Source: an uncultured Dehalococcoidia bacterium
Lineage (GTDB): Bacteria; Chloroflexota; Dehalococcoidia; Lucifugimonadales; UBA3495
DNA length: 20,211 nucleotides
Direction: 5' to 3'
Assembly: GCA_950072105.1 (NCBI GenBank)
Contig: CATMOE010000061.1
Coordinates: 1-20,211 of the forward strand
A model generated the notes under the pieces. That model ran no database searches. It worked only from the letters and a program-made list of their open reading frames with translations, and had not been told where the DNA came from. Positions 15,232-20,045 of the stretch are shown piece by piece (positions within the stretch are counted from its first letter, which is position 1; the number at the start of each line of letters is the position of its first letter). The translations under genes and the position numbers were made by a program.

Positions 15232-15260
15232 TTGTCACCCGCACCCCGTTTTGATAGAAT
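15232..15260 (+). promoter_or_regulatory. sigma70-type promoter of the MBL hydrolase gene
   Basis: -35 TTGTCA (15232-15237), 17-nt spacer, extended -10 TGaTAGAAT (15252-15260). Confidence 0.7.
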
Positions 15261-15972: not shown

Positions 15973-15999
15973 CAGGGAGCGGTCTCCGCTCCCTGTTTT
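15973..15999 (+). terminator. Rho-independent terminator after the MBL gene
   Basis: Perfect 10-bp stem CAGGGAGCGG-TCT-CCGCTCCCTG followed by TTTT. Confidence 0.75.
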
Positions 16000-16048: not shown

Positions 16049-17311
16049 ATGTACCAACGTTCCGTCCTGGATAACCAGCTTCGAGTTTTCACGTCCTCTA
16101 TGCCCCACACCCTGTCGGTTTCGATCACCCTATGCGTCGGCGCCGGCTCTCGCTACGAAACCCCTGAGCTGGCCGGTGTTTCCCATTTTATCGAGCACCT
16201 GCCCTTCAAAGGCACTAAAAGCTGGCCCACCGCCCAGGCGGTTAGCGAGGCGATCGAGGGTGTAGGCGGAATAATGAACGCCAGCACCGACCGTGAAATG
16301 ACGGTTTTTTGGTGCAAAGTTGCCAGGATTCATTTCCGCAAGGCCTTGTCGGTGATGCTGGACATGATTCTCAACCCGGTGTTGGACCGGGAAGATGTGG
16401 AGAAGGAGCGGGAGATCATCCAGGAAGAGCTACGGATGACCTACGACCATCCCACATACAAAGTGGACCTGCTGATCGACGAGGCGCTGTGGCCGGACCA
16501 GGCCATGGGCCGGGATGTAGGCGGGACGCCGGAGACGGTGGAAAAGATTTCCCAGGAAAGCATACGTGAATACATGGCCCAGCAATACAATCCCGCCAAC
16601 ACGGTCCTGGCGATCGCCGGAGACGTTACCCATGAAGAAGTCCTGGACATGGTGGGTGAGGCCACCGTCCAGTGGGAGCCTCGGGAATCACTAGACTGGG
16701 AGCCGGTCGTAAACGGCCACTATGATCCCGAGGTCCGAATGGAGTGGCGGCGAACCGACCAGACTCACATCTGTTTGGCGGTGCCGGGGCTGTCCTTAAA
16801 CGACCCGGACCGGTACAACCTGACCATCCTCAACGTTATCTTGGGCGATGGGATGAGCAGCAGGCTTTTCCAAAGCCTACGGGAGGTTCAGGGATTGGCG
16901 TACGATGTCAGCAGTTCCAACAGCCACTTCCGGGACTGCGGGGCGCTGACGGTTTACTGTGGCGTGGAACCTAAGAAGAGCCGGCTAGCCGTGCAGGGGA
17001 TCGTCCACGAGCTACAGGGGATGCATCAAGAGGCTCCCGAGCAGGAAATTACCAAGGCCAGGGAATATACCAAGGGCCGCCTGCTCCTTCGCATGGAGGA
17101 TACCCGTGCGGTATCGGGATGGCTTGCCAGCCAGGAGTTGCTACAAGGCGAAGTCGCGACACCGGAAGAAGTTGTCCAGAGATTAGACGAGGTAAACTCA
17201 GAAGATGTCGCGAGGGTTGCTGAGCGTCTTCTCCAACCGGAACAGATACGCCTGGCGGTGGTGGGACCTCATCGCAGTGAGGCGCGATTCCTGAAATTGC
17301 TTCAATTTTAA
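16049..17311 (+). CDS. M16 (pitrilysin/MPP-like) zinc peptidase
   Basis: 'AGSRYE', inverted zinc motif 'SHFIEHLPFKGT', 'GGIMNAST', 'EKEREIIQEE', 'LGDGMSSRLFQSLREVQGLAY'; RBS GAGGTG before ATG 16049. Confidence 0.95.
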   Translation: MYQRSVLDNQLRVFTSSMPHTLSVSITLCVGAGSRYETPELAGVSHFIEHLPFKGTKSWPTAQAVSEAIEGVGGIMNASTDREMTVFWCKVARIHFRKALSVMLDMILNPVLDREDVEKEREIIQEELRMTYDHPTYKVDLLIDEALWPDQAMGRDVGGTPETVEKISQESIREYMAQQYNPANTVLAIAGDVTHEEVLDMVGEATVQWEPRESLDWEPVVNGHYDPEVRMEWRRTDQTHICLAVPGLSLNDPDRYNLTILNVILGDGMSSRLFQSLREVQGLAYDVSSSNSHFRDCGALTVYCGVEPKKSRLAVQGIVHELQGMHQEAPEQEITKAREYTKGRLLLRMEDTRAVSGWLASQELLQGEVATPEEVVQRLDEVNSEDVARVAERLLQPEQIRLAVVGPHRSEARFLKLLQF

Positions 17312-17390
17312 TTTTTGGCGATCGTGGATCACGTAAACGCGCCGTCCCGCCTGGTTCTGCCTGAACCCGGCCACGCAGCATGGAGGATAG

Positions 17391-18467
17391 ATGGACCCAA
17401 CCAAGTCGATCCAGGTCGACAGCCTGGAGGAAGCCCATGAAGAGATGTACCGGTTAGGATGGACTGACGGCCTTCCCGTCATCCCGCCGACGGCCAAGCT
17501 TGTTAGTGCTGCGTTGGACTTCCTGGGGCGCGATCCTCAAGAAGTGATCGGCGAAATACCGCCGAAAAACCGAATAGCCACAGTGGAGAAAGTGGTGGTG
17601 AACTCGGTGATGGCCGGGTGCTTACCCGAGTACATCCCGGTGGTCATAGCCTCCATAGAGGCGATGCTGCATAACGAGTTCAACCTAAACGGGATTCAGG
17701 CCACCACCAATTGCATCAGCCCATTGGCGATCGTCAGCGGACCGGTTGTCGAGCAATTGGGATTTAACGCTGGCGACAACGTGTTCGGAGGCGGCTCTAG
17801 GGCCAACGCCGCCGTCGGCCGCGCCATCCGTCTCGTGATGTGGAACATCGGGGGTGGATACGCCGGAGAGATCGACCGGGCCACCTTCGGACATCCTGGG
17901 AAATACACTTTTTGCGTCGCCGAGAACAGCCAGGATAGCCCGTGGGGGCCCCTGCACCAAGACCTGGGGCTCCCTGCCGAATCATCGGCGGTAACCGTTT
18001 TTGCCTGCGAGTCCCCGCACCACATCGCCACCGGATCCGGCTACGTTCTTACCGGCGGCGATATCCTGGCGGTGATCGCCGACAGCATCGCCACCGCCGG
18101 TAGCGCGGCCATGAACGGCGGCGGCCAAGTTCTGCTGCTTATGGGTCCGATGACCGCCCAGAAGCTGGCGTCGGACGGCTACGATAAGCAACAGATCCGG
18201 GAAGAGTTGCACCAACTGGCCCGCAAACCGGTTCGGTTGATGAAGTCCAACAAATTCTTGAACCCGGAACACCCGTTCCACTGGGCCAACTTTATAGACC
18301 CGGAAGACGATGACGCGATGATTCCAGCGTTACGGACGCCGGAAGACCTGTTGATCATGGTGGCCGGGGGTTGGGGTTCAGGGTCGGGGTTTAACGCCGT
18401 GTGTCACGGCTGGATGCAAGCCGGAGGACTGGCCCAAACCCGGCCGATCGAATTGATCCCGTCATAA
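17391..18467 (+). CDS. Conserved hypothetical protein ('GWTDGLPVIPPT' family), partner of the UGSC selenoprotein
   Basis: 358-aa ORF with RBS GGAGGA; motifs 'GWTDGLPVIPPT', 'ATVEKVVVNSVMAGCLPEY', 'RANAAVGRAIRL', 'GHPGKY', 'AENxxxSPW'. Function unknown. Confidence 0.85.
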   Translation: MDPTKSIQVDSLEEAHEEMYRLGWTDGLPVIPPTAKLVSAALDFLGRDPQEVIGEIPPKNRIATVEKVVVNSVMAGCLPEYIPVVIASIEAMLHNEFNLNGIQATTNCISPLAIVSGPVVEQLGFNAGDNVFGGGSRANAAVGRAIRLVMWNIGGGYAGEIDRATFGHPGKYTFCVAENSQDSPWGPLHQDLGLPAESSAVTVFACESPHHIATGSGYVLTGGDILAVIADSIATAGSAAMNGGGQVLLLMGPMTAQKLASDGYDKQQIREELHQLARKPVRLMKSNKFLNPEHPFHWANFIDPEDDDAMIPALRTPEDLLIMVAGGWGSGSGFNAVCHGWMQAGGLAQTRPIELIPS

Positions 18468-18493
18468 TCTCATTGTTCGAAAAGGAGTGAACG

Positions 18494-19024
18494 ATGCCAC
18501 CAATCGAACTCTTTAGCCCCATCGGGGAAGAAGCTCCCCACGCCAAGGGAATCTCTCCCTTTCCCGAGTTAGGGGGAAGCAAGATAGCCTTCCTCTTCAA
18601 CGGACACGTGTCGGTGATTCCCTTCTGGAGGAACCTGGAGGAGGAGATCAAAACCCGTTGTGAGCCGGCTGACACGATCACCGTCATCAAGCCCAACACT
18701 TTCGCTCCCGCCGGACCTTCCACTATCCAGGATTTGTCGGATGTGGACCTGGCCTTGGTTGGGGTGTGCGCTTGAGGCTCCTGTACTTCCGGCTCCGTGC
18801 GAGACGGTATTAACCTGGAAAACAAGGGTGTCCCGGCCGTAGTCATTTCCCACGATGTCTTCGGAAAAGCGGCCCAGGCACAGTCCATCGCCCTGGGTCT
18901 CCCAGAGTTACGGGTCATAATCTACAATCAGCCCAAGGGCAAACCCGACGAAGTAGAGGGAGCTCGGGCGGCCAAGGAGGTCGTGGACCAACTATTACAA
19001 ATGGTGCGAGATTCCGACGTATAA
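18494..19024 (+). CDS. UGSC-family selenoprotein, 176 aa, Sec (TGA 18773-18775) at residue 94
   Basis: Track ORFs 18494..18775 and 18797..19024 share a frame (offset 303 nt). The junction translates ...LVGVCA-U-GSCTSGSVRDGINLENKGVPAV. RBS AAAGGAG precedes 18494 and none precedes GTG 18797; a SECIS-like hairpin follows the UGA. Confidence 0.88.
18787..18820 (+). promoter_or_regulatory. Candidate bacterial SECIS element
   Basis: UUCCGG-cu-CCGU-[GCGAG]-ACGG-uauuaa-CC-u-GGAA. The stem begins 11 nt after the UGA, and the 5-nt apical loop starts with G (18799), 23 nt after the UGA. Confidence 0.65.
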
Positions 19025-19145
19025 AAACCAAAACGGCCGGATTCTCTTGGGGCCAGGGTTGAACTAAAAGTAAAAATTTGAACAGATGGCGCTTGATGGT
19101 TTGGCTAGAGCCACTTTCAAAATCCGTTGCGGCCCAATGCCGGGT

Positions 19146-19210
19146 CCTTCGATAGGGTCAGGACGAACGGTAATCGGACCGCCTTCCGTTCTTAGAGAGC
19201 TTGTTGAACG
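19146..19210. repeat. REP-like element, copy 3 (degenerate inverted pair)
   Basis: CCTTCGATAGGGTCAGGACGAACGG (19146-19170) and CCGTTCTTAGAGAGCTTGTTGAACG (19186-19210) are decayed matches to copies 1 and 2. Confidence 0.7.
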
Positions 19211-19244
19211 GAGTTTTAATGGACCGGCTAATATCAGTCGTTTC

Positions 19245-20045
19245 CTATTGTGCCGCCGCGTCGAACTCGGCCTCAACGGGGTTGCTCAACACCCCGATGC
19301 CGGGAATCTCCACCTCTACCTTGTCGCCCGGTTTCATGGCCTTGGTTGTACCGGTAGTGCCGGAGAAGACCAGATCGCCTGGATGCAGCGTAACTTGCTG
19401 GCTAATATAGCTGACTAACTCGGAAAATGTGAACAGCATATCGCTGGTGTGGGCCCGTTGGACCTCCTCGCCGTTGAGACGGACCAAAATCTCCAGATCC
19501 TGAGGGTTGATATCCGTCTCGATCCAAGGTCCTACCGGAGCGAAGGTGTCCGACCCTTTGGCGCGCCAGAAGGTAGAATCCTTTTTCTGCCAGGTCCGCT
19601 CGCTAACGTCGTTGCCGCAGGTATAGCCTAAGATATACTTCCGGGCGTCTGACGGGGTCACCCGGCGGCAATTTCTACCGATAACCGCCACCGCCTCGCC
19701 CTCGTAGTGCACGTCGCCGCTGGAGTCCTTTGGTATGATGATGGGGTCGTTGGGCCCGGTAAGGGAATTACGGCTCTTGTGCCAGGGCTCCGGATGTTCG
19801 GGCAGCTCGTCGGCGCCTTCACCCAGAACCGACGCGGCGAATTCCAAGTGTTCAGCAAAATTGAGGCCCGGCCCCCAGATCACCGCAGGCTCGGTGGGCG
19901 CCAGGATGTTTACGTCCGCCAAAGGATACCGGGTATCGGTTAGCCTGAAGCGGGTGTAGATACTTCCACGGATCTCAACAATTTCATCTCCCATCACCAC
20001 ACCGAATGCCACTCGCCTGGCGGCTCTAAATCGCGCGATTTTCAT
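19245..20045 (-). CDS. Fumarylacetoacetate hydrolase (FAH) family protein, 266 aa
   Basis: 'GLNFAEH', 'VHYEGEAVAVIG', 'GYTCGNDVSER', 'RAKGSDTFAPVGP', 'LHPGDLVFSGT', 'GVLSNPV'. ATG 20045 (MKIARF) follows GAGGGG. Confidence 0.93.
   Translation of the reverse strand: MKIARFRAARRVAFGVVMGDEIVEIRGSIYTRFRLTDTRYPLADVNILAPTEPAVIWGPGLNFAEHLEFAASVLGEGADELPEHPEPWHKSRNSLTGPNDPIIIPKDSSGDVHYEGEAVAVIGRNCRRVTPSDARKYILGYTCGNDVSERTWQKKDSTFWRAKGSDTFAPVGPWIETDINPQDLEILVRLNGEEVQRAHTSDMLFTFSELVSYISQQVTLHPGDLVFSGTTGTTKAMKPGDKVEVEIPGIGVLSNPVEAEFDAAAQ

Follow-up and report, generated by a model that had tools for sequence, protein, structure and literature searches.

A UGSC-family, very probably selenocysteine-encoding gene of a marine Dehalococcoidia bacterium, its conserved partner gene and a possible relation to the GrdB/PrdB reductases

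Selenoproteins of the UGSC family ranked fifth in frequency in the Global Ocean Sampling data, where 255 sequences were counted (PMC2398784, Table 2), and the sections of a 2026 review available to us still give the family as uncharacterised (PMC13188914). A search of the literature, with subscription papers and most supplements outside its reach, returned no function for UGSC. Comparable systems include glycine and proline reductase, which follow a two-component logic: in the accessible part of PMC11229817, the selenocysteine (Sec) of PrdB attacks a substrate held by PrdA. For GrdB, the motif UxxCxxC is given in the excerpted review (PMC13188914). The UGSC proteins themselves have been guessed to possess a 'likely Trx-like fold' in the sections of the 2008 survey at hand (PMC2398784).

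Here we describe a UGSC gene and its surroundings in a window of 20,211 nucleotides, the whole stretch of DNA analysed, from an uncultured Dehalococcoidia bacterium (Table 1). The gene is an unexceptional representative of a catalogued family, with the same motif, length and Cys homologs as the family described in PF24696, NF041046 and, as far as their available parts go, PMC2398784 and PMC13188914. What is added here is a fold, a controlled profile link to GrdB/PrdB and a clade-wide shifted hairpin; the clade itself may already stand in selenoprotein lists in the supplements of recent reviews. The original prediction had joined two 'hypothetical' open reading frames into one UGSC protein by reading through an in-frame UGA, and the sequence is as it claimed: a 93-aa frame ends at TGA, the next codons in frame are GGC TCC TGT ACT TCC (G-S-C-T-S), and the frame stays open to TAA at 19022-19024, which gives 176 aa with U94 when TGA is read as U. 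The downstream frame of 75 aa would start at GTG 18797, inside the loop of a SECIS-like hairpin, and the prediction was also right that it has no ribosome-binding site of its own, since the 21 nt before this GTG hold no Shine-Dalgarno-like sequence. Membership of a known (seleno)protein family, also foreseen, is borne out by Pfam PF24696 and NCBIfam NF041046. The match to PF24696 runs across the TGA (residues 6-170, model positions 2-169 of 172) with 106.7 bits at a gathering cut-off of 25, far above either half scored separately (19.9 and 67.2 bits, model positions 2-91 and 94-169), so that the continuity is more than chance. With C for U, NF041046 scores 77.2 bits (E 1.3e-21), under its curated cut-off of 125. 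We file the gene under PF24696, and not as an NF041046 equivalog, a GrdB/PrdB or a thioredoxin-fold protein. That standard pipelines split such genes had been anticipated as well, and the 93-aa truncated product is indeed on record in public gene calls; because these calls split the gene, no more than six partial matches came from a word-index search for the read-through protein. The upstream partner gene, the hairpin and 11 other copies in the genome had been overlooked.

Table 1. Positions of the features discussed, numbered from the first nucleotide of the window.
Feature	Position	Strand	Remarks
Partner gene	17391..18467	+	358 aa; WTDGLP (D26), NxVMAGC (C77), C175, E178 conserved
Shine-Dalgarno-like AAGGAG	18482..18487	+	6 nt ahead of ATG 18494; read from sequence
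UGSC-family selenoprotein gene	18494..19024	+	176 aa; motif V-C-A-U94-G-S-C97-T-S-G-S-V-R-D-G
In-frame TGA	18773..18775	+	inferred selenocysteine 94
Cys97 codon	18782..18784	+	inferred resolving cysteine; C in 94% of 127 spanning homologs
SECIS-like hairpin	18789..18807	+	+14 to +32 after TGA; 3 bp, G.A mismatch, 3 bp, 5-nt loop

The UGSC gene follows its partner after a gap of 26 nt that contains the AAGGAG. Judged by the shared motif A/V-N-x-V-M-A-G-C-x-P-E-Y-x-P, the partner is the 'Unknown_1' of Zhang and Gladyshev 2008, which Fig. S1A of that study, in the part available, shows fused to UGSC in Global Ocean Sampling sequences; the association of the two was thus already published as a fusion in 2008 (PMC2398784). 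The fusion also occurs as one paralog in the present genome, whereas the window holds two separate genes, partner first. A limited distribution is described in the consulted sections of PMC2398784, and neither a one-to-one pairing nor 12 copies per genome is among the reports found there. Each of the 12 UGSC matches in the genome lies beside one of 12 partner matches on the same strand, with the partner first in five and UGSC first in seven; one pair is fused, and in another (L031, G000:C30:41348-42240) the partner is interrupted by the contig end. Since the assembly (92% complete) carries 6% contamination, it may be that one or two copies among the 12 stem from another organism. The partner is present at 22/22 ortholog loci and at all 68 loci of a pattern scan that have full 1.5-kb flanks (78/118 when short loci are included). 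Within the class, PF24696 was found in 60 of 151 genomes, with up to at least 21 copies. No Pfam or NCBIfam family covers the partner (best NCBIfam E 0.012 among 95 members), which has at least 4094 homologs, the closest of them (78-81% identity) labelled Chloroflexi or Dehalococcoidia. We ascribe the label Planctomyces sp., borne by one protein of its own cluster, to a mislabelled bin. Its C77 and C175 are kept in 11/11 aligned paralogs and in 75/76 outside sequences each, and D26 and E178 are conserved too. Nine long partner homologs (628-2000 aa) carry a TrxR-type domain (two), a redoxin domain (one), UGSC (two) or a part without Pfam label (four), where the two TrxR fusions rest on two contigs and one contig, respectively, and one linker looks like a possibly mis-joined frame. 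TrxR-type genes also lie within about 2-4 kb of 2 of the 11 other UGSC modules, and no reductase gene adjoins the window copy. Co-divergence of partner and UGSC across 11 pairs was not significant (Mantel rho 0.33, p 0.10). From gene order and fusions, UGSC and its partner probably form a two-subunit pair.

In the predicted model of the UGSC protein (pLDDT 95), five strands and five helices follow one another in alternation by DSSP, and U94-G-S-C97 stands at the start of the helix that follows strand 3. The thioredoxin fold runs beta-alpha-beta, alpha, beta-beta-alpha, with a hairpin after the second helix; DSSP finds no such beta-hairpin in the UGSC model, which does not have the thioredoxin topology. 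Thioredoxin-fold UxxC selenoproteins (Trx-, Prx- and DsbA-like) likewise place UxxC at a helix N-terminus but have the hairpin after the second helix, whereas the UGSC model keeps alternating strand and helix throughout. In structure searches the UGSC model came closest to flavodoxin, receiver, TIR and Rossmann-like domains, at Z scores of 11.0 or less and with no single match setting itself apart. The best 50 matches of each list are doubly wound alpha/beta domains, with no thioredoxin-fold chain among them, an absence that by itself does not decide against that fold. The predicted fold is better described as a flavodoxin/Rossmann-like doubly wound alpha/beta domain than as thioredoxin-like. 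This does not fit the Trx-like guess in the available part of PMC2398784. The original label of a 'thioredoxin-type' motif stands for UxxC as such and falls for the modelled fold. In the ESM Atlas the nearest clusters are unnamed, apart from one auto-named 'Thioredoxin (Fragment) family protein' and one with 16% PF24696. The partner model (pLDDT 91) has no Foldseek match at E <= 0.001 and a best VIA Z of 5.3. PDB sequence searches with the partner alignment (E 0.51), the UGSC alignment (0.023) and the GrdB protein (0.39) gave nothing credible, leaving no solved GrdB/PrdB for a superposition.

How, then, does UGSC compare with GrdB and PrdB? Both GrdB/PrdB (PF07355) and UGSC place UxxC after a hydrophobic strand and continue with a helix, E-x-x-G-x-P and a strand. 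A profile built from 108 UGSC sequences matched the Sec region of GrdB/PrdB at 61.5% (score 34.5 over 73 columns), the GrdB/PrdB profile consisting of 15 sequences chosen by motif pattern from 33 loci in genomes of the same family (Neff 2.6). The controls scored lower, at 15.6 for the reversed profile and at most 25.0 over 30 block shuffles. When every Cys was masked, a score of 29.9 was left. The match is weak and local, falling to 15.7% in global mode, and PF07355 gave no row for the window protein (P0001) at E up to 1. The third Cys of the GrdB motif, as given in the part of PMC13188914 seen, is present in 5 of the 12 UGSC paralogs (UxxCxxC) and replaced in the others (UxxCxxW in five, UxxCxxG in two, the window copy being one of the latter). 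Separate GrdB- and PrdB-like genes exist in this genome as well. No resemblance to the pyruvoyl subunit type was seen in the partner, which reached 1.5% against the frame after GrdB in L042, taken from its position to be GrdE-like.

Our preferred reading, which we put forward tentatively, is that one gene encodes a 176-aa protein with U94 that works with the upstream 358-aa protein as a two-subunit Sec-dependent reductase. SelB-Sec-tRNA would bind the hairpin at +14 to +32, with UGA very probably decoded as Sec. The product would fold, as modelled, into the five-stranded doubly wound domain with U94-G-S-C97 opening the helix after strand 3. It would, in all likelihood given adjacency and fusion, pair with the partner, the likely source of the substrate pocket and of the conserved C77, C175, D26 and E178. 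By analogy with PrdB/GrdB, the selenolate might then attack a small organic substrate bound by the partner and bring about a reductive carbon-heteroatom cleavage; as part of the same tentative step, C97 might resolve the adduct to a selenenylsulfide that a thioredoxin/thioredoxin-reductase relay re-reduces. The 12 paralogous pairs may differ in substrate. The TrxR and redoxin fusions, the profile match to GrdB/PrdB and the precedent of PrdA/PrdB together lead us to favour such a reductase, and we rank it over a mere electron carrier and over a shared metal site.

The strongest competitor is that UGSC is a selenoprotein but only a dedicated electron carrier, whose UxxC reduces a disulfide or sulfenic acid at C77/C175 while the chemistry takes place on the partner, much as in relays of the Msr or arsenate-reductase type. 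Dithiol carriers are built with UxxC at a helix N-terminus, the partner offers two near-invariant Cys, and its fusions with TrxR-type and redoxin domains would suit a relay. However, a strict one-to-one pairing, and UGSC surface motifs that differ strongly from paralog to paralog, exceed what a generic carrier needs, and the profile lead points to the catalytic GrdB/PrdB; we consider the carrier unlikely, though worth keeping in view. Less probable still is a lyase or dehydratase of two subunits, distantly reminiscent of class I fumarase or tartrate dehydratase, in which Sec94, Cys97 and the two partner Cys would jointly coordinate a metal or an Fe-S cluster. Four conserved S/Se ligands would be on offer, and the first Foldseek row for the partner is the alpha chain of a two-subunit fumarate hydratase (7xky_A, E 1.8e-3, TM 0.25), whose VIA alignment (Z 4.8, 184 residues at rmsd 4.9) is the longest among the five leading rows. 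Yet 7xky_A scores at background level, and the fusions to TrxR and redoxin domains speak rather for thiol redox cycling. The fumarase-alpha lead for the partner fold was dropped after a profile comparison with eight fumarase-alpha sequences gave 0.8%.

Returning to the favoured two-subunit reductase, a wider and rather speculative picture would make UGSC/Unknown_1 a pyruvoyl-free branch of the glycine/proline-reductase selenoenzymes: a TrxR-fed enzyme of two subunits, amplified 10- to 20-fold in marine Dehalococcoidia, that cleaves different carbon-heteroatom bonds in dissolved organic matter and includes one cross-phylum clade with its own weak, mismatch-containing SECIS class. We regard the full picture as rather less likely than not. 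For experiments, the locus offers a defined two-gene pair with a predicted fold at odds with the thioredoxin guess in print, residues in either subunit that may be catalytic and a candidate reductant, and two natural Cys versions of the same UGSC subfamily (P0131 and P0132) would be easier to express. It also shows how much annotation misses, with 12 copies here and up to at least 21 in relatives of the class, all with TGA.

The reading of the UGA as Sec94 is, on comparative sequence evidence, close to certain. A search of 100 family genomes at E 1e-25 gave 22 matches, spread over 20 genomes including the window's own, and every match has exactly one TGA, in the same column, at identities of 44-99%. 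TGA likewise occurs in all 12 UGSC copies of this genome and in all of the 150 matches listed in a class-level search with PF24696 (156 more lie beyond the list). Among 127 homologs that span the site, taken from the best 150 of 334 library matches, the column holds 116 Cys, 7 Ser, 3 Gly, 1 Thr and no Trp, and the motif reads CGSC in 99; six of the 23 non-spanning matches in the best 150 end at the residue before U94. The original prediction had expected homologs to align on both sides of the junction with Cys or TGA, had held that Trp in this column would count against it, and had asked for Sec machinery in the genome; each of these expectations held. The machinery comprises selA (550 bits), selB (352 bits) and selD (385 bits), all three above cut-off, and tRNA-Sec (66.4 bits); selA is present in 19 of the 20 genomes with a UGSC ortholog, the exception being 71% complete. 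On pN/pS ratios of 0.14-0.38 upstream and 0.13-0.33 downstream of the TGA (18 pairwise comparisons with close orthologs, three distant paralog-like loci left out), there is purifying selection on both sides. The interpretation as a read-through selenoprotein is accordingly supported. As a side observation, the Ala codon before the TGA (18770-18772) is GCT in 19/19 close orthologs and the base before the TGA is T in 11 of 12 paralogs, while C is common in the wider clade; a lineage-specific recoding context is possible.

Could the TGA be a true stop after all, in a nonsense pseudogene, through a sequencing error or between two small genes? TGA is an ordinary stop in this organism, where it ends 409 of 1480 long open frames (>=350 codons), and the hairpin is weak. 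Against this stand the shared TGA of all 22 relatives, the selection on both sides, the Cys of intact homologs and the missing ribosome-binding site of the second frame, so that on these comparisons the true-stop reading is close to refuted. A sequencing error is excluded by the truncated 93-aa product, which is found identically on 50 contigs (in a cluster of 109 members in public gene calls), and by an independent marine run whose 1629-nt contig corresponds to 17727-19355 with three listed differences, none of them in the TGA codon. Contigs of 4/4 RNA runs cover the codon too; their depth is flat over genes of both strands, and this coverage therefore cannot be read as transcription or co-transcription. 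A code in which every UGA means Trp or Gly (translation tables 4 or 25), for which one could cite the Gly of the three homologs, is practically out of the question, since TGA serves as a regular stop both across the genome and in the window, where it closes 2 of the 14 genes checked, Trp is written TGG, no tRNA other than tRNA-Sec has a UCA anticodon and the spanning homologs have no Trp.

With the UGA read as Sec, the hairpin behind it deserves a closer look. Its loop, CGUGC (18796-18800), is shifted by 2 nt relative to the other 11 paralogs, whose hairpin spans +13 to +29 with GU at +20/21 in 10/11. That canonical hairpin is well kept among the paralogs (92% of 66 cells paired, two compensated pairs). 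It was rejected for the window clade, this copy and its orthologs, where 61% of cells pair; the shifted register was rejected for the paralogs in turn (27% paired). In the window copy and its orthologs the shifted hairpin pairs in 126/126 cells, with one compensated pair in three distant sequences. Five fourfold-degenerate sites at codons +5 to +9 are 95-100% invariant in 19 orthologs (mean 98%), compared with a mean of 54% at 44 other such sites, three of which reach 94%; the stretch was picked after the alignment had been inspected, and the kin are not independent. A pattern scan of 13 of 64 parts of the species genomes found 119 loci, 118 of them UGSC genes, from Gammaproteobacteria, Acidimicrobiia, Betaproteobacteria and Chloroflexota. 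Of 78 distinct sequences, 73, 75, 76, 76, 75 and 76 keep the respective six pairs; the scan pattern had fixed +22, +23, +26, +28, +29 and +31, and not +15 to +21, +27, +30 (Y) or +32. Pair 19-27 varies between A-U (65), G-C (7) and U-A (3) and pair 14-32 between C-G (71) and G-C (2), while positions 17 and 29 never pair. Silent-site conservation and covariation across phyla thus support the shifted hairpin, as a comparative prediction. An earlier idea, that a His-to-Arg change at codon +9 forced the shift, was dropped: L145 and L221 bear the Arg and keep the canonical register.

The consensus for bacterial SECIS elements, as given in the available part of PMC13188914, has a loop of 3-9 nt with a G within its first two positions, an upper stem of 4-16 bp, a distance of 16-37 nt from the UGA and a minimum free energy of at most -7.5 kcal/mol. 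The window hairpin agrees in loop (CGUGC, 5 nt), stem (6 bp around one mismatch) and distance (20 nt from UGA to loop) and misses the energy, for which reason we call it SECIS-like: a 27-nt stretch reaches -5.8 kcal/mol, with no excess of stability over shuffles (z -0.32), a 40-nt stretch reaches -6.4 kcal/mol, and a 58-nt stretch -14.8 kcal/mol in another fold (z -0.13). Rfam gave no credible match at 17300-19300. Because some bacterial SECIS are described in the same source as lying outside the consensus model (PMC13188914), the shifted hairpin is a detail and not a new principle, and it lends itself as a small natural experiment on the hairpins that bacterial SelB will tolerate.

The runs that hold the locus are marine. 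In the phylum, a search at E 1e-17 matched the single UGSC protein in 0 of 300 other genomes, a threshold result, given that the pattern scan found the clade elsewhere. The window and 13 relatives share a gene order of uvrA, a metallo-beta-lactamase-fold gene, an M16 peptidase, the partner, UGSC, an FAA hydrolase (opposite strand), a luciferase-like monooxygenase and a CCG/Fe-S protein, each present in 10-13 of the 14 loci. The other 11 UGSC modules have unrelated neighbours, and with synteny among kin no substrate can be read from the neighbourhood. A PrdB-like short gene lies near the UGSC ortholog in 5/13 relatives (L076, L077, L078, L082 and L084), in two ORF pieces of about 160 and 230 aa, within about 5 kb and at two different insertion points. 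Around the metallo-beta-lactamase-fold gene we noted a promoter-like site upstream (15232-15260; one found, 1.8 expected) and a 10-bp terminator-like hairpin downstream (15973-15995); no strong terminator was found after the UGSC gene. One bin labelled Klebsiella pneumoniae (L136) holds a UGSC gene of the G-T-V-R-D-G type, seen otherwise in aquatic Gammaproteobacteria and Acidimicrobiia, and is probably represented here by a mis-binned contig.

A rough scan of the genome brought up many more in-frame TGA candidates with redox motifs and hairpins, suggesting a large selenoproteome; false positives are among them, since 202 of 5506 TGAs get through on the hairpin filter by itself. Among the candidates are a GrdB-like (C13) and two PrdB-like genes (C31 and C105), and others that look Prx-like (C1, C20, C95), DsbA-like (C4), SelW-like (C81) and DUF3179-like (C1, C63). 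The DUF3179-like candidate on the minus strand of G000:C1, an unrelated gene, has a hairpin loop CGUGU from +21, placed as the CGUGC of the window. GrdB matches in the genome number three full-length and four partial, and at G000:C45:4954-9548 a class I fumarase alpha-type gene lies about 2.7 kb from a GrdB-like gene. Finally, selD itself (L041, G000:C60:2178) contains one in-frame TGA, in H-C-A-G-U-A-G-K, with a strong hairpin.
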